Source: Thermoplasmata archaeon (GTDB taxonomy: Archaea > Thermoplasmatota > Thermoplasmata > Lutacidiplasmatales > UBA184). From it: a DNA stretch of 49,718 bases. A program made the position numbers and the translations under genes. The notes under the pieces are model-generated. The model did no database searches. It worked only from the letters and a program-made list of their open reading frames with translations, and had not been told where the DNA came from. The stretch is from assembly GCA_021828665.1 (NCBI GenBank), contig JAJZDH010000001.1, positions 1 to 49,718 on the forward strand, written 5' to 3'. This document shows positions 11,833-28,549 of this stretch, piece by piece; position 1 is the first letter of the stretch; each line of letters opens with the position of its first letter.

Positions 11833-13656
11833 CTAAAGCGTAATTCGCCGTTGCTCTTCCTCGGCCTTCTTTCGGCGCTCTCGGAACCAGGGCCACACAA
11901 AGGCGAGGGCGATCACCGCCGCGCCGAGCCCCAGCACCGATCCGACCGGTACCGTGGGGATCGAGGAGACGGTCGTCTCGGAAACTGGGCCCGATGCCAC
12001 GTAGAACAGGACCGTGAACGGCGTGGAATTCGTGAGAATGACCGTGGTGGTGTAGCTCCGTCCGAACGCCGTGATTCCCAGCTGATACGCCCCGTACCCC
12101 AGCGCGAGGGTCTGGAGATCGGAGCCGTGGGGAATGACCGGGACGACAAACCCGAGCGGCGTCCCATCTCCCGTCTCGCTCCAGGAGGCGTTCGAAAGGG
12201 TGAAATTGAGGCCGGCCACGAGGCCGGTCCCGGCGATATCCAGCGCCTCCACATAGAAGACCTCGCGATCGGTGGGATAGGGGGTGGACGGGAAGCGGCC
12301 CGTGGAATAGGTGTAGTTTCGCGAGAAGACGGGGGTGCCGAAGATGTCCTTCGCACTCACAAAGAACGTGACCGAACTCTCCGGAGGCAACCCCGGGATG
12401 TTCGCGAACGACGAATTGGGGCTCGTCGGCGTCATCGGAAGGACTCCGGAGTGGGTGGCCTCTCCGTTCGCGAAGACGAAGTTCACCTGGGCCGATCCGA
12501 TCGTGATGTTCGGCTGCGGCTCGTGGATGGTGACATTCACGGCCGTCCCCACGCCCACGATTCCGTTCGCGGGCGGCAGGACATTGGGGTTGGTCGCGAG
12601 GATCAGATTCGAGAGCAGCCCCTGGTTCGGAAACTTCCAGCCACCATGGATGGACCAATTGAAGGTGTACTGCGGGCTGTAGAGGCGGTCGATGGCACCC
12701 CCTTCCCAGGGCAACCAGGCCGTTACGTTGAAACTCACGGTGGAATTGGGGTAGGGACCGATCGGTTGAAGGAGTTGGACCGTGGTGTGGTTCGCGGGCG
12801 CGAAGGCGGCCGTCCGGGTCGTGCTGGATCCCGACTGGTTCACCGAATAGGTGAGCTGGGCGGCGGGGATGGTGCCCACAAGTAGCCCTGGAGGGGCGAG
12901 AGCGTTGAGCGTGATCTGCAATCCCTGATCTGGATTCGGAGCGAAGCTCGGCGAGGCCAGGGCGGGAGGGTTCGTCGACAGTTGAATGCTGTTCGAGAAG
13001 TTCTCGGAACTCCACGGGCCCTGGACAAAGAACAGCCAGCTCGCGGTCAGCCCCGGCCCATCCGGATACGAGTACGGATTGGTAGAATAGATCACCGCGG
13101 GAGTCGCTCCGAGGCCGGTCAGCGTGAGGTTGAAGAGCACCGTATCTCCGGGCCAGAAGAAGCGGTAATCGTTGAAGAAGAAGGAGGCCTGGTTCGGGGA
13201 GCTGGAATTGACCAGCATCTGCTCCGTCCGGGGGTTCTGGGGAGAGTAGCTCGGAATGGGCGTCTGACGGTTCTGGACCGGCCATTCCGTCCCCCAGATC
13301 GTGACGTTGGCGTAGATGAGCGGTTTGTCCGTCGAGATGTTCATCCAAAACCCGTTGGCGTACTCGGGAACATCGTTGATCACCGGCTCGGTAGTGAATT
13401 GCGTCCCGAACGAAGGACTTCCGCCGGGAAGCGCGAACGTAACCTGCACGTCATGGGAGAAGTTCGAACTCCCCCAGAGCGGGGCCGGAGAGGCCGCGAT
13501 GGAGGCTCCACGGGGGACCCCCGCGGAGAAGGCGGGACGAGGCGGTTCCCGAGCGGATCCACCGACGGAGATTCCGCCAAGGAGCGCCGTCCCGCTGAGG
13601 ACCATGACGAGAGCCACCGCGACCGCGAGAACCGGACGTTCCGACAGGATCCTCAT
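11833..13656 (-). CDS. Membrane-anchored surface glycoprotein, 607 aa, paralogous in architecture to the upstream gene
   Basis: Internal ATG at 13656 (MRILSERPVLAVAVALVMVLSGTALLGG) overlaps the upstream stop (ATGA 13653-13656). Asn/Ser/Thr-rich with many N-x-S/T sequons. C-terminal TM VPVGSVLGLGAAVIALAFVWPWF, then the tail RERRKKAEEEQRRITL. The region upstream of 13656 in the track ORF is His/Arg/Pro-rich junk. Confidence 0.8.
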   Translation of the reverse strand: MRILSERPVLAVAVALVMVLSGTALLGGISVGGSAREPPRPAFSAGVPRGASIAASPAPLWGSSNFSHDVQVTFALPGGSPSFGTQFTTEPVINDVPEYANGFWMNISTDKPLIYANVTIWGTEWPVQNRQTPIPSYSPQNPRTEQMLVNSSSPNQASFFFNDYRFFWPGDTVLFNLTLTGLGATPAVIYSTNPYSYPDGPGLTASWLFFVQGPWSSENFSNSIQLSTNPPALASPSFAPNPDQGLQITLNALAPPGLLVGTIPAAQLTYSVNQSGSSTTRTAAFAPANHTTVQLLQPIGPYPNSTVSFNVTAWLPWEGGAIDRLYSPQYTFNWSIHGGWKFPNQGLLSNLILATNPNVLPPANGIVGVGTAVNVTIHEPQPNITIGSAQVNFVFANGEATHSGVLPMTPTSPNSSFANIPGLPPESSVTFFVSAKDIFGTPVFSRNYTYSTGRFPSTPYPTDREVFYVEALDIAGTGLVAGLNFTLSNASWSETGDGTPLGFVVPVIPHGSDLQTLALGYGAYQLGITAFGRSYTTTVILTNSTPFTVLFYVASGPVSETTVSSIPTVPVGSVLGLGAAVIALAFVWPWFRERRKKAEEEQRRITL

Positions 13657-15731
13657 AGGGTCACCCGCTTCTCCTGCTCCTTCCGACGTTCCGAAATGGC
13701 CCGCCACCACCAGACAATGGGGATCATCGCGCCCAAGGCGACGAGCAATCCCAGGGTCGGCCCGATCAGCACCGGAACGACCAACGGCGCGGGCGAGAAG
13801 GTTGCGGCCGGAGCCGTGGAATTGAGCCAAAAGAACAATTGATTCCCCGATTGCACAATCGTGTAATCGTTGGTCTGGGCCAGTGTCCCTTGGGCGACCA
13901 TCGGATTGGTCAGCTTCAGGAGAATCGAGATGGGAGGGCTCGCCTGGGAGGTTCCCGACGGCACGAAGGCTGCATCGGTGACGGTGATGTTGTAGGTAAT
14001 ATTGGCGGGGAGCAGCAGAGGGACTTCCGGGGACGCCGAGGAGTTGGGATAGGCGATCCCGTACAGGGTGCGGGCCCGAACATTGATGAATCCGCCGGAA
14101 GCCACGATGCTCACCGACGCCCCGCTCACCCAGGAATGGGTCCCGTTGTCGTAGACATAGATCCACACGAAGGCCAGATTCGATGCTTGCGCGGGGACCA
14201 CCTGCTGGAAGGTCTGGATACTGTAGCCGTACAGCGAGGACGTCTCCGGGGTGGACGCATAATCCCATACAGTTATGGTGAAATTGATGTACGAACCAAT
14301 GGGGATGGCCGGCAATACACCCTCCAGGTGCGTTGAATTGACTCGTTGCAAATAGAATTGACCGCCCACCTCTTCCTTGAGCGCCGGGAGGCTAAAGGAG
14401 TACTGAATGATGCCACTCCGGAGAGCGGTCCCCAGGTTCCGGCTGGCCACCAGCACCGAGACCGCGGTTCCGGGCGGAAGAACGACCGGATTGGTCACAG
14501 GGGGTTTCGGCATCGGACCGATCGTAGGGGGAATCCCGTTGCTGGGGGTCACCGTCACGGCGATGTCGTCCTGGAAGACCCCGGAAACGAAGGTGCCGTT
14601 CGAATGAACATAATATCCCTGCGTGGGGAGCGTGATCTGGTCCGGGGTGTACTTGGTCGTATCCACCGCGTCGTTGGCCACGATCGAGTAGGAAATGATG
14701 GTCCCCGGAATCTGCGCGTAGCTCGACGGAATGATCGCATACGTGGACGCGAGCCCATGAACTCCGACGCCCGGGGCCAGGAAGGGAATGGTCACATTTG
14801 GCAATGTGACCCCGTCCGGCAACGTCGCGTACAGATTCAACAGAGCACTTCCGATCGTGGCCGAATTGTTATCGACGTTGTCGGCGGCCGTGGTTCGAAT
14901 CGTGATGTTCGTCGAGTCATTCCAATTGGGAGTAATGGGGTTCTGGAAGACCTGGAGATCGAGCGTGGAGGCGTTCGGCCCCCCATACTGAGCGGCCTGC
15001 GGGTAGGGCGAAAACGCCCACGCGGTGGCGATGCGGTAGTGGAAGACGGGGCTCGACAGATGGGTGTAGACACCGGAGGGCTGCCGGGTCACGATATAGA
15101 TCGACCAGGAGACATACTCCCCCGGGAAGAAATTCGGAACCCCGGAGCTGTTCCCGTCAATGACGAGCTGATACCAATACTTGTACGTCCGGTTCGTCAC
15201 CCCCGACACCGAGCTCCAATAGTTGGAATTCGTGTTGGAATGCCAGATCGTCCCGTCGTAGGCATTCATGTACGGATCGCCGTTCCAAAGAACTCCGGAG
15301 ACGTTGATCCGAAGCGGCGTCTTGTTGCTGTTCCCGGTGGGAGAGGGGGGATTGATCGTCGTGAGGGGGTATTCGCTCTTGACATAGAATGAGATCGTGG
15401 CGTTGGGTAGGGGCAGCGTATTGGATGTCAGGTTGCCAGGGGTAGGGACCACGTTGTAGGATCCATTCTTGGCGGAAACGCAGATGGTGGTGTTGATCTT
15501 GAAGCAGGTGTAGTTGTCGGTGGGGTCGAGGGGACGCAGGGAAGTTTGGGGGCGAGCGTGGGACGAGGCCGCCGGCGTCGGGGAAGGAACGGCCGACGGC
15601 GCCCCCAACGAGCCGACCGCTCCCGGAAGGAGACCGGACGCTATCAGCGACAGAAGGACCAGAAGGATGGGAACGGCTCTCACCAAGTTCGAAACGTGCG
15701 GCCGGCTCACTGGATCAAAACTTTCCTTCAT
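13653..15731 (-). CDS. Membrane-anchored surface glycoprotein, ~692 aa
   Basis: First ATG at 15731 (MKESFDPVSRPHVSNLVRAVPILLVLLSLIASGLLPGAVG = signal/anchor). The track ORF starts at a TTG at 15809, which is a possible alternative. Asn-rich sequon-dense ectodomain. C-terminal TM LIGPTLGLLVALGAMIPIVWWW, then the tail RAISERRKEQEKRVTL. Confidence 0.8.
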   Translation of the reverse strand: MKESFDPVSRPHVSNLVRAVPILLVLLSLIASGLLPGAVGSLGAPSAVPSPTPAASSHARPQTSLRPLDPTDNYTCFKINTTICVSAKNGSYNVVPTPGNLTSNTLPLPNATISFYVKSEYPLTTINPPSPTGNSNKTPLRINVSGVLWNGDPYMNAYDGTIWHSNTNSNYWSSVSGVTNRTYKYWYQLVIDGNSSGVPNFFPGEYVSWSIYIVTRQPSGVYTHLSSPVFHYRIATAWAFSPYPQAAQYGGPNASTLDLQVFQNPITPNWNDSTNITIRTTAADNVDNNSATIGSALLNLYATLPDGVTLPNVTIPFLAPGVGVHGLASTYAIIPSSYAQIPGTIISYSIVANDAVDTTKYTPDQITLPTQGYYVHSNGTFVSGVFQDDIAVTVTPSNGIPPTIGPMPKPPVTNPVVLPPGTAVSVLVASRNLGTALRSGIIQYSFSLPALKEEVGGQFYLQRVNSTHLEGVLPAIPIGSYINFTITVWDYASTPETSSLYGYSIQTFQQVVPAQASNLAFVWIYVYDNGTHSWVSGASVSIVASGGFINVRARTLYGIAYPNSSASPEVPLLLPANITYNITVTDAAFVPSGTSQASPPISILLKLTNPMVAQGTLAQTNDYTIVQSGNQLFFWLNSTAPAATFSPAPLVVPVLIGPTLGLLVALGAMIPIVWWWRAISERRKEQEKRVTL

Positions 15732-16374
15732 ATCTACCGTTTCCCCGGTGACGTGGTTGGACTGCTGTCTCGCAGAAGGTCGTGGGTGATGGGCCGCTAG
15801 TCGCCTCAAGGGTTCCGTCGTGGGGGGACGCTTGGGGGGTTATAGACTTCTAGCCCTCGGGCTCGGGAGGATTGGCGGCGGTTGAGTTCCGGCGCCGCCT
15901 CTCCCGGGCCTGCTGGATCTCGAGTGAGGCGCGTGGAGGATCCCCCCACCTTCGGGCCCCAGGTGGAGGCCGATCTATCGAATCCCACGGCGAGCTCCTG
16001 GCCGGGGCCGGCCACGTCCCCCGACCTTGCCATGGAATCGACCGGGCCGGCCGCTATCGGCCCTCTCCCGGGAACCTACGGCGGGAAGGGAGTCCGCCCG
16101 ACCCGGCGCCTCGAGGACGCCCCCCGATTCCGACGCCGTCCATGGAATCTCGCCGCCTTCCGGAGGGAGCGAACGAGTTCCCGGGGATCCCGCGTGAAGC
16201 TTCTCCCGCTCCCTTTCCGCGGTCCCGTCCGGAGCTCCAGCGGTCCCCCCGGGACCGCTTGCCGGGCGGGTGGCCCGGCAGAGGGGCCCGTCTTCCCCGA
16301 TGGGAACCGGACCCACGACCCCGCGGGGAGGGGGAGCCCCGAGGGGGTCCGTCGGTCGGGGTGGCATGGTCGGC

Positions 16375-19300
16375 TCAGCGCTCCGGGGAATCCCGGGAGG
16401 GGGCGGACGGCCGGCGTAGCAGGACCACCGTGGCGATCGCGGCGCCGACGACGACCAGGAGCGCGATCAGCAGGTATCCGGTATCTCCGGTGAAACCGAG
16501 GAACCCGGGAACCTCCGTCGTGCCGGCCGGCTGGAAGGCGATCGACACGGTCACCGACTGGTTCCGGACGGAGAAGGAGCCGGTACGGGAAGCGGGGAGG
16601 AACCCGGGGACCGGGGAGATCTCGAACGAATACTGACCCGCCGTCTCCTCGAAGCGGACGGTCGTCCCGTTCGAAGTCGACGTGGAGGCGTTGGGTCCAC
16701 CCAGTACAGTGACCGACCAGGACTGACCGCTCGGAAGACCCACCTCGGCGAACGTCACCTCGAAATCGGCCGGGACGAAGGAGATGGTCTCCTCCTCTCC
16801 GGCGCCGGCCACGGAGAACTGGCCGTCGCGGGGGGACGCGTTGAACTCCGAGGGCCCCTCCACGACGAAGGAGTACGATCCGTTCGGTTCGGGAACGGTG
16901 AACTGGGATTCCTCGGCCGTGTGGTTGGACCCGTTCACCCGCACGGTCCAGTTCGTTCCGGACGGGAGTCCCGTCTCGCGGAAGGTGATCGGATACGCGA
17001 AGGGGGAGAAGAGGAGAGCCTTCGTGACGGGCGCATTCGCCACGGAGAAGGTCCCGGCCCGCGGCTCGGACGTGTACCCGGAGGGAGGGGAGATCGAAAA
17101 GGAGTAATTGCCGTCGGCGAGCCCGAAGACGATGGAGGGACCCGGGCTGCTCTGCCGGGTGCCGTTGACGGAGACCGACCAGTTCGCGCCGGCCGGCAAC
17201 CCCGCCTCCGAGAACGTGACCGCGTACGTCCGGGGCGGGGTCGTCGCCGGACCCCGGTAGGCGTAGAGGACGCGGTACATCGGGTTGTTGAGGGCGAGCG
17301 TGGCGGAGAAATCGAGATAGAAGCTCGAGCTCGCCGGATACTGCCCTTCGAAGCAGCTGTTGCCGCAGACCGTCCCGTCGAGCGACCGGTTCGTCCGCCG
17401 CACCGAGCCGTTCCAGGGATCGAACAGGAACTGGGTCCCGTTCGTCCAGGCGGTAGGCCCGTAGGATTGACCGAGCACGTAGTCGGAGGTGCTCACGTAC
17501 CGCTGGATCTCGAGCAGTTGACCGGAGGGGCCGGCGGTCCCGTTGTAGTCGGTGGTGCGCCGTTCGCCCTGAGTCGAGAGGTCCCCGTTCGGGCCGAACG
17601 GGAGGACATAGCTATAGGCCATGCTTCCGGCCCAGTACCCGGCCGAGAAGGCGATGGCACCGATGGACGCGTTGTAGGCGAGGCCGTCGACCCAGTTGAA
17701 CACGATCCCGTGGTCCACCGCGACCGTCGCCACCGACGTGAAATGGATCTCTCCCGACGCATCCCAGAGCGCGTCGAGCTGCTCGACGAGGTCGCCCGAG
17801 TCGCCGTGGGCTTCGACATTGATGAGCGCCTCGCGCTGCGGAAGCCAGTAGGCGTTGTTCGCCTCGAAGCAGGTGGCGGAGGGCCCGAATCCGAAACCGA
17901 GGGTGCCGGCGAGCCAGCTCCGGTGGTCGGCGAGATTGAACGCCTCGATGCTGCAGTTGGAGGAGAGGACCAGGACGGTATTGTTGCCCACGTACTCCGG
18001 TTGCTGGTTCGTGGGATCGACCGCCGCGGAGGTGTTCCAGAGGAGCACCTGCCCGTCGGTGACGTTGACCAGCTCGAGCGTCACATCGGCGCCGGCGGGG
18101 CTCGTGGTGCCGAAGAAGAGGGCGCGGTCCCCCGCGAGGAAGAACTCGTTGTCGAGCATTCCGTTGAGGGGGGAGCCGTACCCGAACCGCTGGTAGAGCG
18201 GGATCACCGGTGCGATCGAGCGGAAGGACCCGTTGGGGATCGCGACGTACCCGAATTGGGAGGAGTTGTCCACATAGTAGACTCCGAACGGAACCCCGGA
18301 ACTGCTCGCGAGCGTGGGCACCTGGGTCGAGACGGTGCCGGTCCGGAAGTAGCCCGTGAGCGGATCGAATCCGGGCAGGTCGTAGGTCCGCTCCTGGTAG
18401 CCGAGGAGCGGGGGGGTGATCGCGTGCACGGGCGCCGACAGTCCGGAGCTCCCGTTCTCGTTCCACGCCGCGACCGCGAAGCAGTAGTCCGCGCTGGAGC
18501 CGAGGCCGCCGACCCGGTACGCCGACACGACCCCCGCCGAGATCGAGCGGACCGGTCCGCGGAGGGGGCAGCTCCCCGGGGAATACCAGACGGTGAGGTT
18601 CGTCACGGTGCCGGTCGGATTCGTCCAGGCCAGATCCACGGTCGATCGGGTGACGTTTCCCACGACGAGCCCCGTCGGCGCGGAAGGGGGCGTCGTGGGG
18701 GACGATCCGGAAACCGTGAACGATAGCGCCGTCCAGTACGTGGAGTACGGTAGGATCCACCACGGGTCGGGCACGCGGAAGGAACCGTCCACGTAGGCCC
18801 AGGAGGCGGCTCCGTTCATCCCGTCCGTCGCGCTCCCGGGAGGATTGGCCGGTCCCCCGGTGTAGTTCCAGGTTCCGTAGACGGTCCCGAAGCCGGTCGG
18901 TCGGGTGCTGGCGAAGACACTGATGAGGGTGTCGCCGGCGGCCGTTCCGCTCAGCGGATCGTAGGGCGAATCGCTCGAACCCTGGCTTCCCGGACCGACG
19001 AGACGGGGGATTGGTCCGATCGCGGCCGGGAACAACCACCACTCCACCATCAGGAACCCCGACGACGAGATGCTGACATTGACCCAGCCCGGCGCGCTGG
19101 CCCGGGTCGCGTTCGCCCACATCGCGAACATCGAGGGGGAACTGGTGACCCCCGGGGTGCCCGGGGTCATGGTCCGGTTGCGGAACCAAAAGATGGCGCC
19201 CGGGTCAAAGGAGGAAGAGACCACGCGGGGCCCGGAACTCTGGTAGTCGAACACCACGGCGACGAACGTGTCGCCCACGGAGAAGTTCATGCCCGTACAG

Positions 19301-19563
19301 TTGAGCCCTGCCGTCGAGGCGGTCATCGAGCAGGAACCGTTGAAGACCGGAGTGAGCGGGCCGCCCCCGCCGGCCGTGGCCGGTGTCGGGGGGAGCGCTC
19401 CCCGAATCCCCGGGGGAAGCGCGCCGGCAGGGCGGCTGTCGGTAGCGGGTGTGGGCAGGAGGAGCAACGCCCCCACGAGCGTCCACGCGGCGAGAGGGAC
19501 GAAGCGGCCTCGAGCCCGGGAGCGGAAGCCCCCCGCTACCACCGCACGAAACGAGAGCCGCAT
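16375..19563 (-). CDS. Membrane-anchored surface protein with FN3 domain and three thermopsin-C-terminal-like GLPxGxxW repeats, ~1062 aa
   Basis: ATG at 19563 is preceded by GAGGTGAcc (SD-like). A GTG at 19569 is the alternative start. Signal is FVPLAAWTLVGALLLLPTPA. FN3-like segment PSAPTGLVVGNVTRSTVDLAWTNP...YCFAVAAWNENGSSG. Three ~77-aa repeats, then the TM GYLLIALLVVVGAAIATVVLL followed by RRP. Confidence 0.85.
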   Translation of the reverse strand: MRLSFRAVVAGGFRSRARGRFVPLAAWTLVGALLLLPTPATDSRPAGALPPGIRGALPPTPATAGGGGPLTPVFNGSCSMTASTAGLNCTGMNFSVGDTFVAVVFDYQSSGPRVVSSSFDPGAIFWFRNRTMTPGTPGVTSSPSMFAMWANATRASAPGWVNVSISSSGFLMVEWWLFPAAIGPIPRLVGPGSQGSSDSPYDPLSGTAAGDTLISVFASTRPTGFGTVYGTWNYTGGPANPPGSATDGMNGAASWAYVDGSFRVPDPWWILPYSTYWTALSFTVSGSSPTTPPSAPTGLVVGNVTRSTVDLAWTNPTGTVTNLTVWYSPGSCPLRGPVRSISAGVVSAYRVGGLGSSADYCFAVAAWNENGSSGLSAPVHAITPPLLGYQERTYDLPGFDPLTGYFRTGTVSTQVPTLASSSGVPFGVYYVDNSSQFGYVAIPNGSFRSIAPVIPLYQRFGYGSPLNGMLDNEFFLAGDRALFFGTTSPAGADVTLELVNVTDGQVLLWNTSAAVDPTNQQPEYVGNNTVLVLSSNCSIEAFNLADHRSWLAGTLGFGFGPSATCFEANNAYWLPQREALINVEAHGDSGDLVEQLDALWDASGEIHFTSVATVAVDHGIVFNWVDGLAYNASIGAIAFSAGYWAGSMAYSYVLPFGPNGDLSTQGERRTTDYNGTAGPSGQLLEIQRYVSTSDYVLGQSYGPTAWTNGTQFLFDPWNGSVRRTNRSLDGTVCGNSCFEGQYPASSSFYLDFSATLALNNPMYRVLYAYRGPATTPPRTYAVTFSEAGLPAGANWSVSVNGTRQSSPGPSIVFGLADGNYSFSISPPSGYTSEPRAGTFSVANAPVTKALLFSPFAYPITFRETGLPSGTNWTVRVNGSNHTAEESQFTVPEPNGSYSFVVEGPSEFNASPRDGQFSVAGAGEEETISFVPADFEVTFAEVGLPSGQSWSVTVLGGPNASTSTSNGTTVRFEETAGQYSFEISPVPGFLPASRTGSFSVRNQSVTVSIAFQPAGTTEVPGFLGFTGDTGYLLIALLVVVGAAIATVVLLRRPSAPSRDSPER
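16528..17226 (-). repeat. Three tandem ~75-81-aa protein repeats (F-x-E-x-GLP-x-G-x-x-W-x-V-x-V-x-G ... Y-S-F)
   Basis: The three units are YAVTFSEAGLPAGANWSVSVNG..GNYSFSISPPSGY, YPITFRETGLPSGTNWTVRVNG..GSYSFVVEGPSEF and FEVTFAEVGLPSGQSWSVTVLG..GQYSFEISPVPGF. The coordinates were converted from residue counts made by hand. Confidence 0.7.
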
Positions 19564-19855
19564 GGTCACCTCACCGCAGACGGCCGGCTCCTATCCCCGG
19601 CAGGGCATGTCGGGGGAGCGAACCCGGTTCGCTCGGGGACCCGGGAAGCTTCGTTCGCTGTGGATGCGGGCGGCAGGGTCCCGAACCTCGGTCCGAAGGA
19701 ACGACGAAAGGAGGGCCCCAGGGAATTCGCCGAGACGAATCCCCGCCCCGACCGCGGCCGACTTCCGAATCCTGCCGCCCGGGAGGCCCGGCCCCTGTCC
19801 GGGGCGCCCCCGGGCGCCCCGGTGCCGCCGGCGCCGCCGGGAGTCGACGACATGC

Positions 19856-22021
19856 CTATTCGAAGCGACCGATCCCCGAGCCGGAGGACTGCTGCCGACC
19901 GGCCTCGAACATCGACACGGCATTCTTGTTCTTCCCGGACATCGCGGCCACGGCCATGGAGATCGGCCGATTCCTCTGGGTCACCCGGATGAAGCCCGCC
20001 CCGAGGAAGCCGGCGGTGGCGGCCTGCAAGGCGACGTTCGCGACTCCCACCTGGGCGGCAATCCCGATGGGGGAGATGACCGGCAACGCGGGTGGGATCG
20101 CAATCGGGATGGGGGGTGGTACGATGGGAGGGGGCGGAGGCAGAGCGATCGGGGGCGGCCCGACGGGGGTCACCTCCACGGTCAGTACGGCCACGGGGAA
20201 CGATTCGACCACGGACGTCACGTTGGTGATCGGCAGGTACGCCGCCCACGAATACAGGCCGCCCACGGGCTGGCTACCGGCCACCGCGCAGGAGTACCCG
20301 AGGCAGGCATCGACCGGCACCGTGGCGAACGGCGGCCCGTTCACGATCACGTTGAACGAAACCGACCAGATATCCCCGATGTACATCTGGTTGGTCGAGG
20401 CATTGCTGCTCCAGTTCCAGCCGTAGGTGCTGTACACGCCGGACGCCCCGCTGCCGCTGAATCCCGTGTAGTTGGCCTGGACCGGCTCCGCGACGCAGTG
20501 CGTCGGACCGGCCCAGAGCACGCCGTTCCCCAGCGCGCACGACGAGGTGAAGTTGGGGCCCCCCAGCGATGCCGGGGCGATCTGGACGGCTCCGTAGGGC
20601 GCGAACTGGAACATGGGCTGGTGGGTGCCGTTCGCGACCAGCGTGGTCTCGATCGGTCCGAAGCCGATCCCGCGGAACGCCGCCAGCAACGTCGGGTTGT
20701 TGGTGTTGGGCGTGTAGGGGCTCCCGATGGGGACCTCCTGCAGCTGGCCGGTCTGCCCGTCCGGGCAGGAGAAGTAGTTGGGGCCGTTCCACGTCCCGCC
20801 CGTGGCGGCGGCCATGGCGCACCCGGCGAGGAGGATGTCCGTGGAGTCCTTCCAGGAGAGGACGCTGTTGGGACCACCGTTCGTCCGGCCGGCCACCCAT
20901 TGCTTGGAATACGGGTTGGTGACCCCGTTGTACAGGTCGATGACATCCACCGTGCACACCTTTCCGATCGAGTCCGTGCACTCCGGCGCGGTGCGGGCAA
21001 GACCGGCGATGGAGTCCGAGACATTGCCGTTGTTGGAACGGACCCAGCCTTCGCACTCCGGGCTCTGGACCGCCCCGAAGTTGTAGGACGGTTCGCATCC
21101 CGGACTCATGCAGTTCTGGCAGTAATTGGCATAGTCCGAGGAACTCGGGTAATAGTTGATCGTGAAGCTCGGATCCCGCGGAACCGTCGATCCCATCCAG
21201 ACGATGACATGGTGCGTGTTCGGCGACCAGTCGAGGCCGCTTCCGATGATGGTCCCGTAGAGCGCCGTGATCACCGAGGAGTGGAGGATGTTGTCCGAAA
21301 GGTCCGAATCGGAGTAGATGTACCCGCCGTCCAAGACATTGGCCTGGAAGGATCCCGCGACGGCGCTTCCGAAGTCGCTCGCCGGGACGAAGGAGGGGAT
21401 GTCGACATGGTACTCGAGCCCATCTCCGTCGTCAAAGTTGTCGAGCGTCGCAAAGTAGTCCACCATGGCGAAGGAGACCTGGCTGTGGGGATTCGCGGCC
21501 TGGATCGCCCCCGCGATCTGCTGGGCGTGGGCGACGAAGAACGGGACCCCGTTCGATTCGTCGCAGACCGCGCCGCCCCCCTGGGCGCAGACGTCGTTGC
21601 CAGGGTCGCCCGCGCTGGGATCGTAGACGCCATCGTAGGCGGTGGTCTCCACCACGAAGGCGACCTGCACGGCCGGCCACGCCTCAATCCCGTTCGGGGA
21701 GGCTTCGGCGGTCATGGTCACCCGGCTCACTCCGTTCCCCACCGCGCAGTCGGTCCCCCCGTAGGCGCAGACGGCTCTCGGATTGTCCGAGATGGAGAGC
21801 GTGAGCCCGGGAACCGCCTGGGCCGAGGGGACGGGAATGGCCGCCGGGGCGGCCAACGACACCAACGGCGTCGCATCCACCGGCGGGGCCGGCGCGATCG
21901 CCGGATGGATGGAACCCGTGCTCGTCGCCGGCACCGCCGGGCCGAAGGCCCCGATCAGCACCCCAAGGACAAATCCGGCCAATAGCAAGACCAGCGTTCG
22001 GCGCCCGAAGACCTTCCTCAT
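19856..22021 (-). CDS. Surface protein, 721 aa, Cys-rich ectodomain (possible vWA/Rossmann-like alpha/beta core), Pro-rich stalk and conserved C-terminal anchoring module
   Basis: ATG at 22021 overlaps the stop of the giant upstream gene (ATGA 22018-22021). Signal is MRKVFGRRTLVLLLAGFVLGVLIGAFG. Strand-like VAFVVETT and HVIVWMGST segments suggest a vWA-like fold, but this is a weak call because there is no DxSxS. The C-terminus is PPPIALPPPPPIVPPPIPIAIPP...ATAGFLGAGFIRVTQRNRPISMAVAA. It is homologous to the C-terminus of CDS 42126..44384. Confidence 0.85.
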   Translation of the reverse strand: MRKVFGRRTLVLLLAGFVLGVLIGAFGPAVPATSTGSIHPAIAPAPPVDATPLVSLAAPAAIPVPSAQAVPGLTLSISDNPRAVCAYGGTDCAVGNGVSRVTMTAEASPNGIEAWPAVQVAFVVETTAYDGVYDPSAGDPGNDVCAQGGGAVCDESNGVPFFVAHAQQIAGAIQAANPHSQVSFAMVDYFATLDNFDDGDGLEYHVDIPSFVPASDFGSAVAGSFQANVLDGGYIYSDSDLSDNILHSSVITALYGTIIGSGLDWSPNTHHVIVWMGSTVPRDPSFTINYYPSSSDYANYCQNCMSPGCEPSYNFGAVQSPECEGWVRSNNGNVSDSIAGLARTAPECTDSIGKVCTVDVIDLYNGVTNPYSKQWVAGRTNGGPNSVLSWKDSTDILLAGCAMAAATGGTWNGPNYFSCPDGQTGQLQEVPIGSPYTPNTNNPTLLAAFRGIGFGPIETTLVANGTHQPMFQFAPYGAVQIAPASLGGPNFTSSCALGNGVLWAGPTHCVAEPVQANYTGFSGSGASGVYSTYGWNWSSNASTNQMYIGDIWSVSFNVIVNGPPFATVPVDACLGYSCAVAGSQPVGGLYSWAAYLPITNVTSVVESFPVAVLTVEVTPVGPPPIALPPPPPIVPPPIPIAIPPALPVISPIGIAAQVGVANVALQAATAGFLGAGFIRVTQRNRPISMAVAAMSGKNKNAVSMFEAGRQQSSGSGIGRFE

Positions 22022-25000
22022 GGAGAACCCCCCTGAACCGTGGATTTGTTGCCGTCAAGCCGCTGGGGCGATGGATTCGTGGCCGGTGGGCTCCAGCCCG
22101 ACTCGGTCCTCCAGGGGCCGAGCCCGAGGTAGGCCACCACGCCGATGGCCGCAATGCCCGCCAGGAGGAGAGCCGATCCCAAGGTGAACCCACCCGAACC
22201 GCTCGTGGCCGTGGCCGAGACCGGGGTCAGGGCCAGGGTGGCGGGAAGGATCGCGGAGGACTTCGCCACGACCGGGCTGAAATTCGGCAGGTACCCGGCG
22301 GCCGACACATTGATCCGGTACGTCCCGAAATAGACCCGCGCCGAGAAGGTACCCTGGGCGGTGGTGAAGAGCGTGCCCTCCGACACCGGCAACCCATCCT
22401 CGGTGGCTCCCGAAATGACCACGGAAGCGTTCGCGATCGGGGCTCCCGTCAGGGAGTCCACCACCAGACCGGAGATCTCGGTGGATCCCGGGTAGAGCAG
22501 GATATTGCGCGTGACCGCCGCTCCCGAAATTCCGACCGATATGTTGACGGTTCCGTAGCCTCCGGCGTTGCTGGCGGTCACCGGTGGGGAGACCGTGATC
22601 GTGTAGGTCCCGTTGGGCAGGGCCACGGAATAGCTCCCCGTCGGGCCGGAGGAGGCGAGCTGGGTGCCGCCGACCACGATCCGGGCCTGGCTGATCGGCG
22701 CCCCGGTCAGCCCGTCGCTGATGAGGCCGCTCACCGTGTACACCGTCTGGGGAAGAGCGAACTCGATCCCGCTGAGGTCGGCGTGGACCGTGATCGTTCG
22801 GCTTTCGGCGCTGTATCCGTTCTGTTCCGCCGTCAACACGTAGACCCCCCAGGGAATCGAGAGCACGAACCCTCCCGAGGCGTTGGTGGCGGTGGCGAAG
22901 TTCGACCCGGCCGTCACCACGGCCCCATCGAGGGGGGTGGAATTCTCCCCGCCCACGACGCTGCCCTGCACCGAGTAGAGCAGATTGGTTCCCGTGGGGA
23001 TGAGGAAGATCGTGAAGATGGTCGTGACGATCCCCGCCAGCAGGACGACATGCACGTACGCGTCCTGGTAGTTCGGTCCCGCGACCACGAGCACGTACGG
23101 TCCGGGAGGGCCCGAAAGGGAGAACGCGCCGGAAGCGCTCACCGGGACGTTCCCGGTGCAGTTGCCGACGCTCCACCGCTCGCAGGCCTGGACCAGCGCA
23201 CCGACGACCGGTGCGTTCGTGTCCTGACCGAACACGGTGCCTTGGACCGTCCCCAGGGCCTCGAGGAAGATCGTTCCGATGCTCGCATACTCGCCCGGCC
23301 CCAAGGAGAGCGACAGGTACGTGGCATTGTATCCGGTCGCATTGAGGGCCAGGATGTAATTGCCGTACGGGACCGAGAGTTCAAACTGCCCGATCGAATC
23401 GGTCAGGACCGTGACAAAGCAGGGACCGGTCGGTTGACCGGGGAGGGCGATCGCGGAGCACATGCTCACGTTCGCCCCCACGACCGGGAGACCCGACGGG
23501 TCCCCGAGGAGCGTTCCGGTGACGGTGGCATACTGGTCGATCACGAAGTTTCCCGCCCATTCCCAGACATCGGACCGGACCAGGATGGTGCCGGGGGTGG
23601 TGTTCTCCGAGTATCCGGGCGCGGAGATCGCGATCGTGTCCCGGCCCGGGTCGGCCACCACCCAGAAGTAGCCGGTGCCGTTCGTCGTGACATTGCTGTT
23701 CTGGCAGGTCGGCGATGCGATCGGGCAGACCGACACCGTCGCCCCGTACAGCGGAACGTTCCCGGGGTAGACGAAGATCCGGCCGGCGACCACCCCGAGG
23801 CCGGTCAGATTGAGGGGGGTCAAGTTCCCCAGCTCCCCGACTCCGACCTTGACCCGGGTGTTGTTGGTCAGGTAGCCATTCAGGGTGACCGACACCTGAT
23901 CCACCGCGCCCGGTGGGGCATCGGACATGAAGAACCCGGCACCGTTGGAGATGATCCCCACGGTCCCGGAACCATTCGGGTTCGAGACGGTCGCCGAGGC
24001 CCCGTAGACCGGTACCCCGAGCGCCGAGTCGACCACCGTCCCCCATACCCATCCCCACGGCTGCAGCAGGATGGAACCGATCTGGGCGGAACTGCCGTTG
24101 ACGAAGGTGGTGGCGCTCTCGTTGACGCTGATGTTCTCCACCACCGTGCCATTGAAATCGGGAGCGGCGACGGTCAGCGTCAGATTCCTTCCGATCGGCG
24201 CGGTCATATTCACGAATCCATGGCCATCGGCCACGGCCGAGGCTCCCGAGACCACCGAGTCGTTCTTGGTGATCACGGTCGCCGTGGCGACGGCATACGG
24301 GACGACGCTCGACGTGCCCCCGAAGGCCGCCACCGAGGCATCCACCTGGAAATTCAGCCAACCGAAATGGGCGAGGGAGATCTTCGGCAATAGCCAGACG
24401 GCGGAGGCGGAGATGTTCTCGAGCAGGGAGAGGTTGTTCGCAAACCAGGCGAGCGGGAAGCGATACGAGAAGTTGTGGGGCATGTACGCCGACACCTGGG
24501 AGGCCGGGGTCAACCCGTTCGTGATGTTTCCCGGCGGCATGAAGATCGTGTACTCGCCGCCACCCCCCAGCGCCTCCGTGTACGTGAAGACGGCAAAGTT
24601 CGGCGTCGCCACCGTCAGGGCGATGCTGCCGAAGCGGACCGGAGTGGCGTTGTTGGTCGACCCGTCCCGCACCACGCCCGTGAACGCAGTGTAGATGACA
24701 TTCCCCATCACCAAGAACGGAAGGCTGCCGTTCTTGGTCGTGTTCCAGACGGTGTCGTTCTCGAGGAACCCCTGACGCGCCGATCCTTGACCGCCGCCGG
24801 AAGGCACCGAAAAGACGAGGTCCGCCTTGGAGTTGACCGCCGAGATGTTGAAGAATCCGCCGGAATCCGTTTCGCCAAGCGAAGTGATCTCATGATTGTG
24901 GCTCGCCACGGTGACCAGCGTCTGCACCCCGATCCCCTCGGAGATCGTCACCACGTTGCGCCAGGGATCCACCACGATCCGACCGCGAAGGTACCCCAAC

Positions 25001-28000
25001 GGAACGAGCCGGATGGTGCTCTCGTTGATGTAGGGCGCCGAACCGTTCACCGTCAGGAAGCCGGACCAGGGGTAATAGACCCCCGTATAGGTGACATTGA
25101 ACGAGTACGCTCCCACACCGAGGGTGAAGTTGAACTGGCCGATGTCGGAGATCGAGCTCGCCACGGTGACGGGCGTCCCGCCGCCCACGGGGTCCAGGCT
25201 GATGGTCGCCGAGGGGACTCCGAGTCCGGTGGAGTTGTCCACAATGAACCCGTAGACATACGCCGCCGAACCGTTCGTCGCATGCGGCCGGGACGCCGGG
25301 AGTCCCGCCGATCCCAGAATCGGCCGAAGGACGATCGTCGTGGCCGTATACGTCTGGCCCGGTTCGGTGACGTTGACCCAGGTGCTGTTGCTGAGATACC
25401 CGGGAGCGTTCGCCACGACCATGTACCCGCCGATCGGCAGATGGGCGGCAGGCAGCAGCGCGAAGTAGCTGCCGTTGGTGCTCGTCAGACCCGATCCGAT
25501 GATCGGCAGGCAACCGACCCCCTTGTTGGAGATCGGGCACACCTGGGCGGAGGAGGTATTGAGAGAGTACCCGTTGGGTCCGACCACCCGTCCCTCCAGA
25601 TAGGATTCCGGGGTCAGATAGATGGTCCGGGCATGGACGATCCCGGACCCGACATAGACCCACGTAAAATTGACCAGGAAATTCGGGGACGCGGCGTGCA
25701 CCAGAACCCAACCGGGAAGCGCCGTGATGGCATACGCCCCCGCCGCATCGGCCACCGTACCCCCGGAGGGTTCCGTATTGAGGCCGGCGGCGGAGAGGGA
25801 GACGGTGACCGCACCGGGTAGCGGCTCCCCGGTGAGGGCATCCAGCACCGTGCCGGTGATCTCGGCGCCCGTCAGATTGATGGAGGTGGCGTGGCGCGGG
25901 CTCGCGAGGTCCAGAGGTAGTGGAAGCTGGCTCCACACTCCGGGGGGCACGTACGCTACCGTGGAGTTCGAGGTGGACGTGAGTCCGGTGATGCTGATGA
26001 GGGAAGGGCCGGGGACCACCGGCACGCAGAAGTAGTAGTACGTTGCCGGACAGCCGGCGGGGTCCTCGTCCACATGCTGATAGTAGATGGTGATGTTGTT
26101 TTGGAGGTAGTACGTGTTGCCCGGCGCCGTCGCTCCGCACCAGCTGAGCTCGTCCGTCGAGCAGTCCGACGCACTCCACAACGCCGTCGAGGGGGCCACA
26201 TTCCCCAGAACGTAGGTTCCCGGCGTGAGACCCACGGAGCCGATGTTCAGGATCCGGTCCGGGGTCGCATTGATGTACGACCAGTTCCCGGTCACCGGTA
26301 GATCGCCGGGGATCGGCCAGGTCGGGATGGGCGGGTGGCAGGTCCCGGTGTCGTCGGGAAGGATATTGATCGAGTTCCGGAGCGGGGCGGCGATCATTTC
26401 GACGGTGTTATTCAGGTTGCCGCACCCCTGGCCTCCTTGGCACTCGGAGTTGGTCATATTGTAACCGCCGAAGGTATTCTGGGTCACCTGCGAGAACTTG
26501 AATCCGTCCAGACTGCACACGGTCTCGTACACGAGACCGGTGCCCCACTTCGCGATCGCGTTGGCCGCCGCCTTCGCGTAGGTCAGGGTGGGCGTCAGCT
26601 CGACGATTCCGTTCTGGATCAGGTTGATCCGGCCCATGTTGTAGGTATGGCCCGGCGCGAGTTCGGGGACGGTGATGTAGGTGGTATTGGAGATGTATCC
26701 GGTCGCATAGAACGTGATCAGATCCGGCGCCGCGGGGGCGATCGCGATCGGGGAAACCGGACCGGGAGAGCCGGGAAGTACGGTGACCGACCCTTCGTTG
26801 AAGCAGACCCCCGTGTTGTCGCGCTCGCAGGCCCTGATGGCGGCGAACGCAAAGAACGAGCCCAACCAGTTGTAGATCTCCTTTCCCGTGGTCGAGCTGT
26901 AGAGAGTGGCCGTCACCTTGACTCCCAGCTGGAGATACATCACATTTCCGCCGCCGATCCCCCAGTTGGTGGAATCCACCTGGCCGGGCTGGAGGTCGAC
27001 ATAGACATTGCTCGGGAAATAGAGACCGTTTCCCTGCACGGGCGTGAACGTGACCTCAGATGGCCCCGGAGGGACGAAGGTGCAGAAGTGTCCGGCCGAA
27101 TTCGTGTACGCCGAGGGTGACGCAATGATCCGCCCGTCCCGGCTCTGGCCGACCGCCTCGATATCGGCTACCGGTTCGTGGCCGGGATCGGCTCCCTCGA
27201 CGTAGCCGCAGATGCTGGCGTCCGGCACGAGAAAGATCGTGCCGACATCGTAGTTGCTTCCGGCCGAGATGTTGGTGAGCAGGGTGTAGTTGTCCAGGTA
27301 ACCTCCCGCCGTCACCTGGATCTGATCGGCCGGGACCAGCACGACGATCTTGAAATAGCCATTTTGGGTCGTCGTACCCGGGGCGCAGGTGGTCGTCGGA
27401 CAGGACAGGCCGACAGGGTAGGCTTGAACCGCGGCCCCCGGTACCGCAGTGACCGCGCCGTTGACGAGCGTCTTCACATATCCCCACGCCGTCGCCGTCT
27501 GGAGATTGGTCGTCGCGGCGCGGACCGAGGAAGCCTGGGTTCCGCTACCGGGATGGGCCGACGGGGCTTGGAGAACCCCCCAACCGGGCTGTCCGCTCGC
27601 GTTGGTCACATTGTTCCAGATGTTGAGCTGGAGGCCCGTGGGGTGGGGGAACAGGGAGGGAGTTGCCGCCAGTGTTTGGGAGGTGACCAGCGGCTCAGAT
27701 TGGGGATCTTGCCCGATATTGACCTGGGAGGGGCGAAGACCTGGACTGGAGGTCGGCCCGGAAGCGGCGACGTCCCGGAGGGCCGCGTTGCCTCCCGCTC
27801 CTGCACCGAGCCCGCTCGAGGTATTCGACGTCGTGCTTCCGGCGAACACCGAGATCACCGAGAGCGGGGAGAGGATCATGAGGGCGCCCACGCCCACCGC
27901 GAGGGCGATCGCCACGGCCCGCTGCCCCCGGTTCCACGGCACGAACGGGAGGCGGCGGCCGGTGGGGAACCGTTCGGTCCCGTTGTTCGTCAAACGATCT

Positions 28001-28026
28001 CCGAGGCCTTTCGCGGCGGCGCCCAT
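22018..28026 (-). CDS. Giant membrane-anchored surface protein, 2002 aa, built from >=14 CarboxypepD_reg/PEGA-like beta-sandwich modules
   Basis: Internal ATG at 28026 (MGAAAKGLG...AVAIALAVGVGALMILSPLSVISVFAG) lies 25 nt downstream of a consensus TATA box. The module signature G-x-(V/I)-x-D-x-x-(T/S)-G-x-P-(V/I)-x-x-A-x-V recurs, for example GTVLDALTGEPLPGAVTV, GFIVDNSTGLGVPSATISL, GTVVDSALGVPVYGASATV, GLISDGLTGAPISQARIVV and GLVVDSLTGAPIANASVVI. C-terminal TM is GSALLLAGIAAIGVVAYLGLG. Confidence 0.9.
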   Translation of the reverse strand: MGAAAKGLGDRLTNNGTERFPTGRRLPFVPWNRGQRAVAIALAVGVGALMILSPLSVISVFAGSTTSNTSSGLGAGAGGNAALRDVAASGPTSSPGLRPSQVNIGQDPQSEPLVTSQTLAATPSLFPHPTGLQLNIWNNVTNASGQPGWGVLQAPSAHPGSGTQASSVRAATTNLQTATAWGYVKTLVNGAVTAVPGAAVQAYPVGLSCPTTTCAPGTTTQNGYFKIVVLVPADQIQVTAGGYLDNYTLLTNISAGSNYDVGTIFLVPDASICGYVEGADPGHEPVADIEAVGQSRDGRIIASPSAYTNSAGHFCTFVPPGPSEVTFTPVQGNGLYFPSNVYVDLQPGQVDSTNWGIGGGNVMYLQLGVKVTATLYSSTTGKEIYNWLGSFFAFAAIRACERDNTGVCFNEGSVTVLPGSPGPVSPIAIAPAAPDLITFYATGYISNTTYITVPELAPGHTYNMGRINLIQNGIVELTPTLTYAKAAANAIAKWGTGLVYETVCSLDGFKFSQVTQNTFGGYNMTNSECQGGQGCGNLNNTVEMIAAPLRNSINILPDDTGTCHPPIPTWPIPGDLPVTGNWSYINATPDRILNIGSVGLTPGTYVLGNVAPSTALWSASDCSTDELSWCGATAPGNTYYLQNNITIYYQHVDEDPAGCPATYYYFCVPVVPGPSLISITGLTSTSNSTVAYVPPGVWSQLPLPLDLASPRHATSINLTGAEITGTVLDALTGEPLPGAVTVSLSAAGLNTEPSGGTVADAAGAYAITALPGWVLVHAASPNFLVNFTWVYVGSGIVHARTIYLTPESYLEGRVVGPNGYSLNTSSAQVCPISNKGVGCLPIIGSGLTSTNGSYFALLPAAHLPIGGYMVVANAPGYLSNSTWVNVTEPGQTYTATTIVLRPILGSAGLPASRPHATNGSAAYVYGFIVDNSTGLGVPSATISLDPVGGGTPVTVASSISDIGQFNFTLGVGAYSFNVTYTGVYYPWSGFLTVNGSAPYINESTIRLVPLGYLRGRIVVDPWRNVVTISEGIGVQTLVTVASHNHEITSLGETDSGGFFNISAVNSKADLVFSVPSGGGQGSARQGFLENDTVWNTTKNGSLPFLVMGNVIYTAFTGVVRDGSTNNATPVRFGSIALTVATPNFAVFTYTEALGGGGEYTIFMPPGNITNGLTPASQVSAYMPHNFSYRFPLAWFANNLSLLENISASAVWLLPKISLAHFGWLNFQVDASVAAFGGTSSVVPYAVATATVITKNDSVVSGASAVADGHGFVNMTAPIGRNLTLTVAAPDFNGTVVENISVNESATTFVNGSSAQIGSILLQPWGWVWGTVVDSALGVPVYGASATVSNPNGSGTVGIISNGAGFFMSDAPPGAVDQVSVTLNGYLTNNTRVKVGVGELGNLTPLNLTGLGVVAGRIFVYPGNVPLYGATVSVCPIASPTCQNSNVTTNGTGYFWVVADPGRDTIAISAPGYSENTTPGTILVRSDVWEWAGNFVIDQYATVTGTLLGDPSGLPVVGANVSMCSAIALPGQPTGPCFVTVLTDSIGQFELSVPYGNYILALNATGYNATYLSLSLGPGEYASIGTIFLEALGTVQGTVFGQDTNAPVVGALVQACERWSVGNCTGNVPVSASGAFSLSGPPGPYVLVVAGPNYQDAYVHVVLLAGIVTTIFTIFLIPTGTNLLYSVQGSVVGGENSTPLDGAVVTAGSNFATATNASGGFVLSIPWGVYVLTAEQNGYSAESRTITVHADLSGIEFALPQTVYTVSGLISDGLTGAPISQARIVVGGTQLASSGPTGSYSVALPNGTYTITVSPPVTASNAGGYGTVNISVGISGAAVTRNILLYPGSTEISGLVVDSLTGAPIANASVVISGATEDGLPVSEGTLFTTAQGTFSARVYFGTYRINVSAAGYLPNFSPVVAKSSAILPATLALTPVSATATSGSGGFTLGSALLLAGIAAIGVVAYLGLGPWRTESGWSPPATNPSPQRLDGNKSTVQGGSP

Positions 28027-28051
28027 CGTGGGTCCCACGACCGCGATTTCA

Positions 28052-28059
28052 ATTATAAA
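28052..28059 (-). promoter_or_regulatory. Archaeal TATA box (TTTATAAT) with upstream purine-rich AAAGG (BRE-like) for the 2002-aa gene; geometry implies a leaderless or near-leaderless mRNA
   Basis: Minus-strand reading is ccAAAGG-TTTATAAT-tgaaatcgcggtcgtgggacccacg-ATG. An 8-nt all-A/T box stands out in a very GC-rich context. There are 25 nt between the box and ATG 28026. Confidence 0.65.
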
Positions 28060-28549
28060 CCTTTGGCCGACGTAGTGGCGTACTCTCGACGGAGGACGTG
28101 CCGTACGTCGATCCGGTCGGCAACCCCCTTGCCGGCTTCCCAAATCCAGGATCGGGCCGGTCCGATCGGACACGGGTCACCGAGCCGGGGGAGGCGGCAC
28201 GCAAGCGGGCCGATGGGAGGCCGGAGGGCGCGGGCCCGGCCCACTTCCGTTCGCGCCGAAGTCGGACCCGGGGATCGGACGGGCCCGGCACCAAGGGAAC
28301 CGTCCGGTGAACCCGGCCCGACCGACCCGCGGCCGTTCGGTGGCCCCGGAGGAATGTTCCATCGGCCCACGGGAGGGGGGCCGTTTGCCGGCATCCGCCA
28401 AGGAGATCCGCGCGGCGCTTCGTTCCACAAGCGGCCGTGGATCCCCAGACCCCCCGCCGAGGAACGATCGGGACTGGGACTCCGGCGACATCGGCCGGGC
28501 GACCGGTTCGAAAGGAATAAGCGATGGGGGAGTTTCGGCCACCGGACCC

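Follow-up and report, generated by a model that had tools for sequence, protein, structure and literature searches.

How are the large surface proteins of an uncultured archaeon held at its membrane, and does a C-terminal end common to two of them serve as a plain anchor, as a sorting signal or as something more specific? Lutacidiplasmatales (formerly TMEG) are abundant, uncultured archaea of acid soils and, to our knowledge, nothing is known about their cell surface. The question is raised by a 49.7-kb stretch of DNA from a Thermoplasmata archaeon of this order (assembly GCA_021828665.1, contig JAJZDH010000001.1; the whole stretch is hereafter called the window). It has a GC content of 68.8 %, and a run of very large minus-strand genes in it encodes membrane or surface proteins rich in N-glycosylation sequons. 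Two of these products, protein A (19856..22021, minus strand, 721 residues) and the Kelch protein B (42126..44384, minus strand, 752 residues counted from the ATG at 44384), both of them borne out as ORFs at the stated coordinates, had been predicted from the letters of the DNA to be collinear at their C-termini. We find that this C-terminal unit, consisting of a beta-sandwich "leg" domain, a proline-rich stalk, a hydrophobic segment and a tail, is old, previously undescribed and common to two families of Lutacidiplasmatales-type surface proteins. With a probability of roughly 0.55, it would be a type I unit specialised for anchoring and coupling, in which the membrane helix and the tail make sequence-specific contacts. 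The published description of the order, with a GC content of about 69 % and a genome of about 2.1 Mb, is in keeping with the window and does not discuss surface proteins (PMC9287336). Relatives of A found through its family profile and at related loci include 'Ca. Lutacidiplasma silvani' and other metagenome-assembled genomes (MAGs) from acid soils.

The collinearity of the two C-termini holds well. With the C-terminus of B as query, a single alignment of 167 residues with A was obtained (36.5 % identity, E = 3e-16), which passes through the stalk and reaches the motif SMAVAA. The globular part alone, termed segment 1 in the original prediction, shows 41 % identity over 82 residues in BLASTP (E = 3e-14), and its local score of 162 compares with 27 +/- 5 for shuffled sequences, none of 2000 shuffles reaching it. 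For the hydrophobic segment with the tail, the score of 56 stands against 25.2 +/- 4.7, again with no shuffle (0/5000) attaining it. The extent of the shared region had, however, been drawn too small, since the leg domain reaches further towards the N-terminus: residues 72-107 of A match residues 460-495 of B (in a 767-residue numbering; E = 0.002), with a score of 64 against 23.5 +/- 4.7 and 0 of 5000 shuffles as high. This additional piece, absent from the first description, shows that the leg domain is contiguous in B (about 442-633) and split in A (68-107 and 511-616) by an insert of about 400 residues. Besides A and B, no open reading frame (ORF) of the window carries the module.

Structural models agree with this split arrangement. 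The AlphaFold2 model of A, built on an alignment of 91 sequences, has a predicted local distance difference test (pLDDT) score above 90 for residues about 68-620, and the strands at 73-107 and 514-616 flank a large region of alternating strands and helices. Residues 68-107 (21701..21820, minus strand) thus provide, on their homology to B and a pLDDT above 90, the predicted N-terminal strands of the beta-sandwich with a conserved cysteine pair, C85/C92. Residues 108-510 (20492..21700, minus strand) form in the model and in Foldseek comparisons a Cys-rich, vWA-like alpha/beta domain placed in a loop of the leg, a cargo outside the shared module. Residues 511-616 (20174..20491, minus strand), which correspond to segment 1 and are delineated by BLASTP and the family alignment, complete the leg with the motifs WNWS, GPP..VPVDAC..C and SFP; W535, N536, W537, S538 and C578 are invariant and C573 near-invariant among the 91 A-family members to which this and the following conservation figures refer. 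In B, residues about 115-441 of the 752 (43062..44042, minus strand) are a Kelch beta-propeller according to Pfam Kelch families, AlphaFold2 and Foldseek, and they too are cargo. The contiguous leg at 442-633 (42486..43061, minus strand), homologous to both pieces of A, is all-beta in its model with a pLDDT of about 90. On these models, A is a vWA-like domain inserted into a beta-sandwich, and B carries the same sandwich behind a Kelch propeller; the layout of A is supported because the two parts of the sandwich homology flank the insert.

Fold comparisons link A to pilus-tip adhesins and integrin beta chains, and B mainly to Kelch domains. The best Foldseek matches of A in the PDB are PitA, SpaC, RrgA and GBS104 (E 2e-10 to 4e-7), along with a bacterial vWA protein, and many integrin beta chains match over about 550-600 aligned columns (E 4e-8 to 5e-6); a vWA-type domain inserted in a beta-sandwich is common to these pilus-tip adhesins, the vWA protein and integrin beta. 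The propeller of B resembles the Kelch domains of KLHDC2 and LZTR1 (TM-score about 0.7), its best matches being 6-bladed, and B as a whole gives a loose alignment of 638 columns with integrin alpha-X over propeller and leg (E = 5e-10, ranked 47th). In terms of sequence, A has no Pfam match at E<=0.01, including vWA (PF00092 and relatives), and family profiles searched against PDB sequences, that of A included, gave chance-level matches only. As modelled, the similarity of A to vWA domains is at the level of the fold only.

The module is widespread within one lineage. The A family has more than 377 matches at 50-65 % identity over the full length, all annotated as 'hypothetical' and all from Thermoplasmata. 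An exhaustive HMMER search, in which a two-sequence profile of A and B was run against 1.8 billion cluster representatives, returned 126 representatives (105 at E<=1e-10), and all the named ones are Thermoplasmata. A hidden Markov model (HMM) search for further carriers, as had been suggested, finds the module in more than 100 sequence clusters besides the two genes. Confinement to these two, or an alignment no better than shuffles, had been named as counting against the original prediction, and neither is the case. The whole arrangement is kept in about 95 of the 126 representatives, while about 20 have the leg domain only, followed by PKD-like repeats and a classical transmembrane (TM) plus RRR anchor; leg domain and tail are separable, because these 20 combine the former with a different anchor. 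Sorted by their N-terminal cargo, the carriers fall essentially into two families, 48 Kelch-type and 46 A-type. Among Kelch proteins only true orthologues of B have the module (11 of the top 120 matches), and 3-4 paralogues of A occur per genome. Related loci were sampled with the A-family alignment, and B-type loci were thus not sampled genome-wide. A word-indexed search with the B module alone gave no match, its Pro-rich words having probably swamped the candidate selection. No Pfam or NCBIfam model covers the module, and nothing on it was found in the literature on integrin-like proteins of archaea, on the surface proteins of Thermoplasmata or on membrane-anchored ATPases of the Cdc48 type. 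The module thus defines two large, multi-copy families of Lutacidiplasmatales surface proteins, and an HMM of it would annotate hundreds of 'hypothetical' proteins and flag candidate adhesins.

As A and B lie 22 kb apart within one surface-protein island, a recent local duplication or gene conversion might be considered; this is so improbable as to be practically dismissed. The modules of A and B are 34-41 % identical, whereas either one shares 50-97 % identity with its orthologues from other loci, and the two window copies (winA and winB) rank only 106th-170th in each other's match lists. Grouping by family is seen in 201 of 209 cases with the leg-domain half and in 197 of 209 with the tail half. 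A recent duplication is refuted by each module grouping with its own family and, because domain and tail do so separately, the module is considered old and vertically inherited in both.

The strongest indication of function comes from the membrane-proximal parts. In A, a proline-rich stalk (residues 617-650, 20072..20173, minus strand), Pro-rich across the family and of low pLDDT, leads to a Gly/Ala-rich, predicted transmembrane segment (651-678, 19988..20071, minus strand; PIGIAAQVGVANVALQAATAGFLGAGFI), delimited by entropy and hydropathy, and a basic, predicted cytoplasmic tail defined by family conservation (679-721, 19859..19987, minus strand; RVTQRNRPISMAVAA, then S-x-F-E and a terminal GIGRFE-COOH). 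The counterparts in B are a proline-rich stalk recognised in the sequence (634-679, 42348..42485, minus strand), a weakly hydrophobic Gly/Ala/Pro-rich segment placed by hydropathy and orthologues (680-699, 42288..42347, minus strand; GPGLLAPAPIASGAIAAGFT) and a basic tail identified from its alignment to A and from orthologues (700-752, 42129..42287, minus strand; RLRVKRKVSMAVAAPSG, ending RRSIFGD-COOH). Both proteins show the same order of motifs, namely a hydrophobic segment of 20-28 residues, AAGF-x-R, a basic cluster and [IV][SA]M-x-VAA, and the AAGF-x-R end of the B segment is kept in 11 B orthologues. The hydrophobic stretch had been described as short, atypical and interrupted by basic residues. 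It is indeed weaker than the classic anchors of neighbouring proteins, the maximum of the 19-residue Kyte-Doolittle average (KD19) being 1.74 in A and 1.26 in B against 2.2-3.1 in the neighbours; it is, however, longer than claimed (28 residues in A, 20 in B) and uninterrupted, ending at AAGF-x-R with the basic cluster only afterwards.

Column entropy computed across the A family singles out this segment. Its mean entropy of 0.85 bits is the lowest of all regions, compared with 2.61 bits for the N-terminal signal/anchor, 2.92 for the N-terminal linker, 1.48 for the N-terminal piece of the sandwich, 1.08 for the vWA-like core, 1.40 for the C-terminal part of the sandwich, 1.59 for the Pro stalk and 1.62 for the tail, and 11 of its 28 columns are at least 90 % conserved. 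G671 is invariant, G653, V658, G659, Q666, A670, A675, G676 and F677 are conserved at about 97-99 %, and L665 and A667 at about 90 %; G659, V663, A667, G671 and A675 form a ladder of small residues. In the tail, N684, P686, S703 and F705 are invariant and A692, G718, F720 and E721 near-invariant. Among all carriers, the tail following AGF-x-R measures 30 residues where it ends in [VI]RGx[DE] and 37-41 where it ends in G[IV]GRF[ED], and the tails of B orthologues comprise 41-56 residues with the ending S[RK]F[EG][DE]. The tail of about 30 residues characterises a large B-like subfamily (P0152, P0155, P0165, P0168, P0174, P0179, P0184, P0187, P0202, P0216 and others), which ends in [VI]RG-x-[DE] (RGED, RGAD, RGSD etc.), unlike the GRF[ED] class. 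Readings of the internal VAA as resembling a degradation tag and of the terminal RGxD as resembling RGD were rejected as resemblances without support.

Neither protein has a lysine or arginine in the 15 residues before the segment, and three (A) and five (B) are found in the 15 residues after it. All N-x-S/T sequons of A and B are N-terminal of the stalk, and A has an N-terminal helix at 6-25 in addition to its 28-residue C-terminal segment. From this charge bias and the placement of the sequons, we infer a type I topology with a cytoplasmic tail. In the arrangement proposed, the outermost part would be the disulfide-containing, sequon-bearing beta-sandwich leg, following the Kelch propeller in B and hosting the vWA-like insert in A; next inward would come a proline-rich spacer of 35-50 residues, then a Gly/Ala-rich transmembrane helix with the small-residue ladder and a conserved Gln/Asn, and innermost a basic juxtamembrane cluster and a fixed-length cytoplasmic tail with an aromatic-acidic C-terminus, the whole presumably remaining uncleaved. 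Such a unit would position an adhesin-like head at a defined distance from the membrane of a cell that probably lacks a wall, while its helix and tail would make sequence-specific contacts with a partner in or under the membrane; candidates are the same helix in further copies, members of the other family and a shared protein of the membrane or the cytoplasm. An unusual conservation pattern, with stronger constraint on the membrane segment and the cytoplasmic end than on the extracellular head, points to such a partner. Coupling to a partner is favoured over a plain anchor or a cleaved signal because the membrane segment is the best-conserved part, and the peculiar segment is not demanded by the membrane of the organism because neighbouring island proteins use much more hydrophobic, ordinary anchors.

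Some points weigh against this proposal. AlphaFold2 confidence is low for the stalk, membrane segment and tail in both A and B, and the partner is one whose existence and identity we infer. The segment of B is short and contains proline, and with a KD19 value of 1.26 makes membrane spanning uncertain for B; judged by this marginal hydrophobicity, B may instead possess a re-entrant or amphipathic anchor. Conservation all round the helix could mean that it is buried in a bundle, but a segment that is non-helical or processed would be compatible with it too. A simple dimer of helices packed through one face is not supported, as the conserved positions of the A segment lie all around the helical wheel.

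The simplest alternative, an ordinary anchor whose conservation reflects slow divergence in a narrow clade or the composition bias of a 69 % GC genome, draws on the clade being narrow and on high GC favouring Ala, Gly and Pro. However, the N-terminal hydrophobic signal of the same proteins, at 2.61 bits against 0.85, is almost unconserved, the two families retain the same motifs after diverging to about 35 % identity, and neighbours in the same genome have unrelated classical anchors, so that this reading is strongly disfavoured and appears very improbable. The suggestion that the module is more than a plain anchor is thus upheld by the membrane segment being the most conserved region of the A family and by the retained tail motifs. 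The original prediction inclined instead to a sorting or processing signal, from which a sortase-, archaeosortase- or rhombosortase-like enzyme would remove the tail while attaching the protein to a lipid or envelope polymer. The module is C-terminal, it consists of a Pro-rich stalk, a Gly/Ala-rich, helix-destabilised hydrophobic segment and then basic residues, and the segment is as highly conserved as an enzyme substrate would be; moreover, the C-terminal anchors of other island proteins differ, one of them being faintly GVDTG-CTERM-like, and several anchoring routes may therefore coexist. Known archaeosortase and exosortase signals (PGF-, PEF-, PEP- and GlyGly-CTERM) are likewise C-terminal, combine a linker, a hydrophobic segment and basic residues, and occur on large glycosylated surface proteins. 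In signals for sortases, archaeosortases and exosortases, the signature is found on the outer side of the hydrophobic segment, and the short terminal basic cluster is discarded upon cleavage. The module, in contrast, lacks an outer-edge signature, the features common to A and B being placed at the inner border of the segment (AAGF-x-R) and within the tail, and a conserved tail of 30-53 residues takes the place of the basic cluster; such a tail, of fixed length per class and with an invariant S-x-F and a final G-R-F-E, would be wasted on a discarded propeptide. An NCBIfam scan of full-length A and B at E<=0.1 and of the isolated tails at E<=10 returned no family for either protein, CTERM sorting models and LPXTG included, nor is an LPXTG motif present in the C-terminal sequences of A or B; we agree with the original prediction that the module is neither PGF-CTERM nor of the pilin type. 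No gene for a candidate processing or cognate enzyme is present in the stretches covered, namely the 49.7-kb window and the conserved neighbourhoods at related loci. A sorting signal consequently loses its place as the preferred explanation and is regarded as rather unlikely, and the specialised anchoring unit would represent a mode of anchoring and coupling distinct from the archaeosortase route.

A different C-terminal anchor is seen on other proteins of the island. The C-terminus of a 1064-residue protein (16375..16530) and those of P0191, P0196 and P0199 share the pattern [PT]-x-FLG[LF]-x(2-4)-[DE]GY, followed by a strongly hydrophobic TM segment and RRR. Its match to the NCBIfam model GVDTG-CTERM is faint and sub-threshold (E = 0.074; 13.4 bits, where the cutoff is 29). 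The FLG..GY-TM-RRR anchor may be a true sorting signal for these other proteins.

Protein A belongs to an operon (3694..28173, minus strand) that bears on two further alternatives. Its order is a giant of roughly 2000 residues with CarboxypepD_reg repeats (22018..28173), A, the type I membrane proteins X1 (13653..15752) and X2 (11833..13650), a membrane-embedded double AAA+ ATPase (8094..11648) and a PKD protein (3694..7752), all on the minus strand. The stop codon of the giant overlaps the start codon of A as ATGA (22018-22021). This order is kept in about 35 of 78 loci (L006-L083) and also in L002 and L004, with an extra gene for the 1064-residue protein (16375..19569) between A and X1 in the window, and the operon has the look of a surface-assembly system not described before. 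The first ~670 residues of the ATPase comprise about 10 predicted TM helices together with an extracellular loop domain, and two AAA+ domains of the Cdc48/PAN type follow; the protein has no protease domain, and its membrane part has no Pfam match. At 69 % identity to its orthologue in L002, from a distant genome, it is conserved far above its neighbours. X1 and X2 are paralogous, match no Pfam or NCBIfam family, and have C-termini (13653..13720 and 11833..11900) with the nearly invariant sequence WW-x-QIRARRK-x-EE[KR]R[VI]TL-COOH in about 35 genomes. By their sequence these ends appear to be a second conserved cytoplasmic C-terminus within the operon of A, a context that also speaks for the coupling unit proposed above.

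The tails of A and B, which are basic, of fixed length and presumably unstructured, might be handles by which this Cdc48/FtsH-like ATPase grips these large surface proteins for assembly, extraction or turnover, and the R[VI]TL ends of X1 and X2 might serve it likewise. Substrate tails reaching the AAA+ pore are established for the engagement of FtsH and ClpX, and tails of 30-50 residues could presumably do the same here; the conserved linkage with the ATPase, the polytopic, Cdc48-type build predicted for the latter, and the presence of conserved cytoplasmic C-termini on three type I proteins of the operon are all consistent with the idea. B and most paralogues of A are, however, encoded away from the ATPase, and the top conservation of the membrane segment itself would be left without explanation, for which reasons a handle seems improbable. 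An integrin-like heterodimer for transmembrane signalling, in which A (with the layout of a beta subunit) and a Kelch protein such as B (with that of an alpha subunit) would be joined through leg, helix and tail, is possible but unlikely. The Foldseek similarity of A to integrin beta chains (E about 1e-7), the inserted-vWA topology shared with pilus adhesins and the alignment of B with integrin alpha-X, albeit 47th-ranked, argue for it, as does the single hydrophobic segment at the end of each chain, which has small-xxx-small spacing and is bordered by AGF-x-R. Two related MAGs keep the clusters of A and B linked although the DNA between them differs, and both proteins are present in the assembly DAHUZZ. 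Divergent paralogues of A also lie directly downstream of Kelch genes on the same strand (L062, 782..5005; L080, 1..3103; L082, 7283..11881), and the pairing of Kelch and vWA-type genes is taken to recur as an operon because the A-type paralogues start 3-8 nucleotides after the Kelch stop codon. Against this stand the lack of sequence-level similarity to integrins or vWA domains, a propeller of the Kelch type, closest to 6-bladed Kelch domains and not FG-GAP, and the absence of the DxSxS motif of the metal ion-dependent adhesion site (MIDAS), where A reads E125-T126-T127-A-Y, with E125 and T126 invariant and T127 near-invariant in the family. EGF repeats (no Pfam EGF match) and an NPxY motif in the tail are also missing, the conserved operon partner of A is the CarboxypepD_reg giant and not a Kelch protein, and the Kelch genes coupled to A-type genes in L080 and L082 have neither the module nor any anchor. 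In L086, the gene adjoining a B-type gene, considered as a possible A-type partner, encodes another Kelch protein. A combined version, a two-chain receptor of A and B associated through the homologous leg, a glycine-zipper-like helix and the tail, whose tails would be read by a cytoplasmic or membrane machine, possibly the AAA+ ATPase of the operon, and which would have arisen independently of metazoan integrins, is rather doubtful; if true, it would couple the two sides of the membrane, mechanically or by signalling, in an archaeon without a wall.

Whatever its function, the vWA-in-sandwich and propeller-plus-sandwich layouts offer a concrete prokaryotic parallel to integrin architecture. Like integrin beta, A has a vWA-type domain set in a beta-sandwich loop, after which come a spacer, a single hydrophobic segment and a short conserved tail, and a propeller protein of the same genome shares its membrane-proximal layout. 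It has no sequence similarity to integrin beta, and a proline stalk takes the place of the PSI domain, EGF repeats and beta-tail domain; E-T-T replaces DxSxS, and NPxY is not found. B resembles integrin alpha in its propeller head, beta-sandwich leg, single hydrophobic segment and G-F-x-R at the predicted inner border, which resembles GFFKR over three residues only; it differs in that the propeller is Kelch rather than FG-GAP and that one leg domain replaces thigh, calf-1 and calf-2. Between A and B, moreover, TM segment and tail are homologous, which is not so between integrin chains.

The pilus-tip adhesins RrgA, SpaC, PitA and GBS104 of Gram-positive bacteria, the best structural matches of A, similarly carry a vWA domain in an Ig-like stalk domain. 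They are, however, linked to the pilus through LPXTG and sortase, whereas A, which is archaeal and predicted to be membrane-anchored, has no LPXTG or match to a sorting model and ends in a long conserved tail. In the operons of a predicted archaeal surface system around arCOG01314, an AAA+ ATPase is combined with secreted vWA and Ig-like proteins and with proteins that are membrane-bound or S-layer-like (Makarova, Galperin and Koonin 2015, PMC5898192); this system shares with the operon of A the theme of vWA/Ig-like surface proteins together with AAA+. Its ATPase is of the soluble MoxR/GvpN type and its arCOGs are others, while the ATPase of the window is polytopic with two Cdc48-type domains; the module is not mentioned in that paper.

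B is located in a conserved run of Kelch genes of its own. In L084, an rve-family integrase/transposase gene (14923..15873) lies just downstream of the pair formed by B and a Kelch-PKD gene, and this integrase may explain the rearrangement between the two clusters that sets this related MAG apart from the window. Between the two clusters, the 28-39 kb part of the window has a housekeeping character, with genes for a metallo-beta-lactamase, Nre, a zinc ribbon protein, AdoMet synthetase, an Elp3-like radical SAM protein and an FMN dehydrogenase.

Gene starts in this high-GC region need some caution. The ATG at 44384 is probably the start of B and the TTG-started ORF reaching to 44429 over-called; the ATG is favoured because the orthologue P0247, which is 96 % identical, also has 752 residues. 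Upstream of B, the Kelch ORF of 1455 residues (44365..48732, minus strand) corresponds to two genes (450 and 601 residues) in the related MAG L084, and its N-terminal ~400 residues as called look non-genic in the window, because of which simple ORF calling is considered to over-extend gene starts here. On the other side of B, an ORF of 901 residues (39392..42097, minus strand) combines a Kelch propeller with three PKD domains, one TM segment and an entire peptidyl-tRNA hydrolase domain (PTH2, residues 787-899). Its orthologues in L005 and L084 (766 and 769 residues) end after the TM segment and have no PTH2, and the ORF represents either a real fusion, the loss of a stop codon or a PTH2 that is also translated from an internal start.

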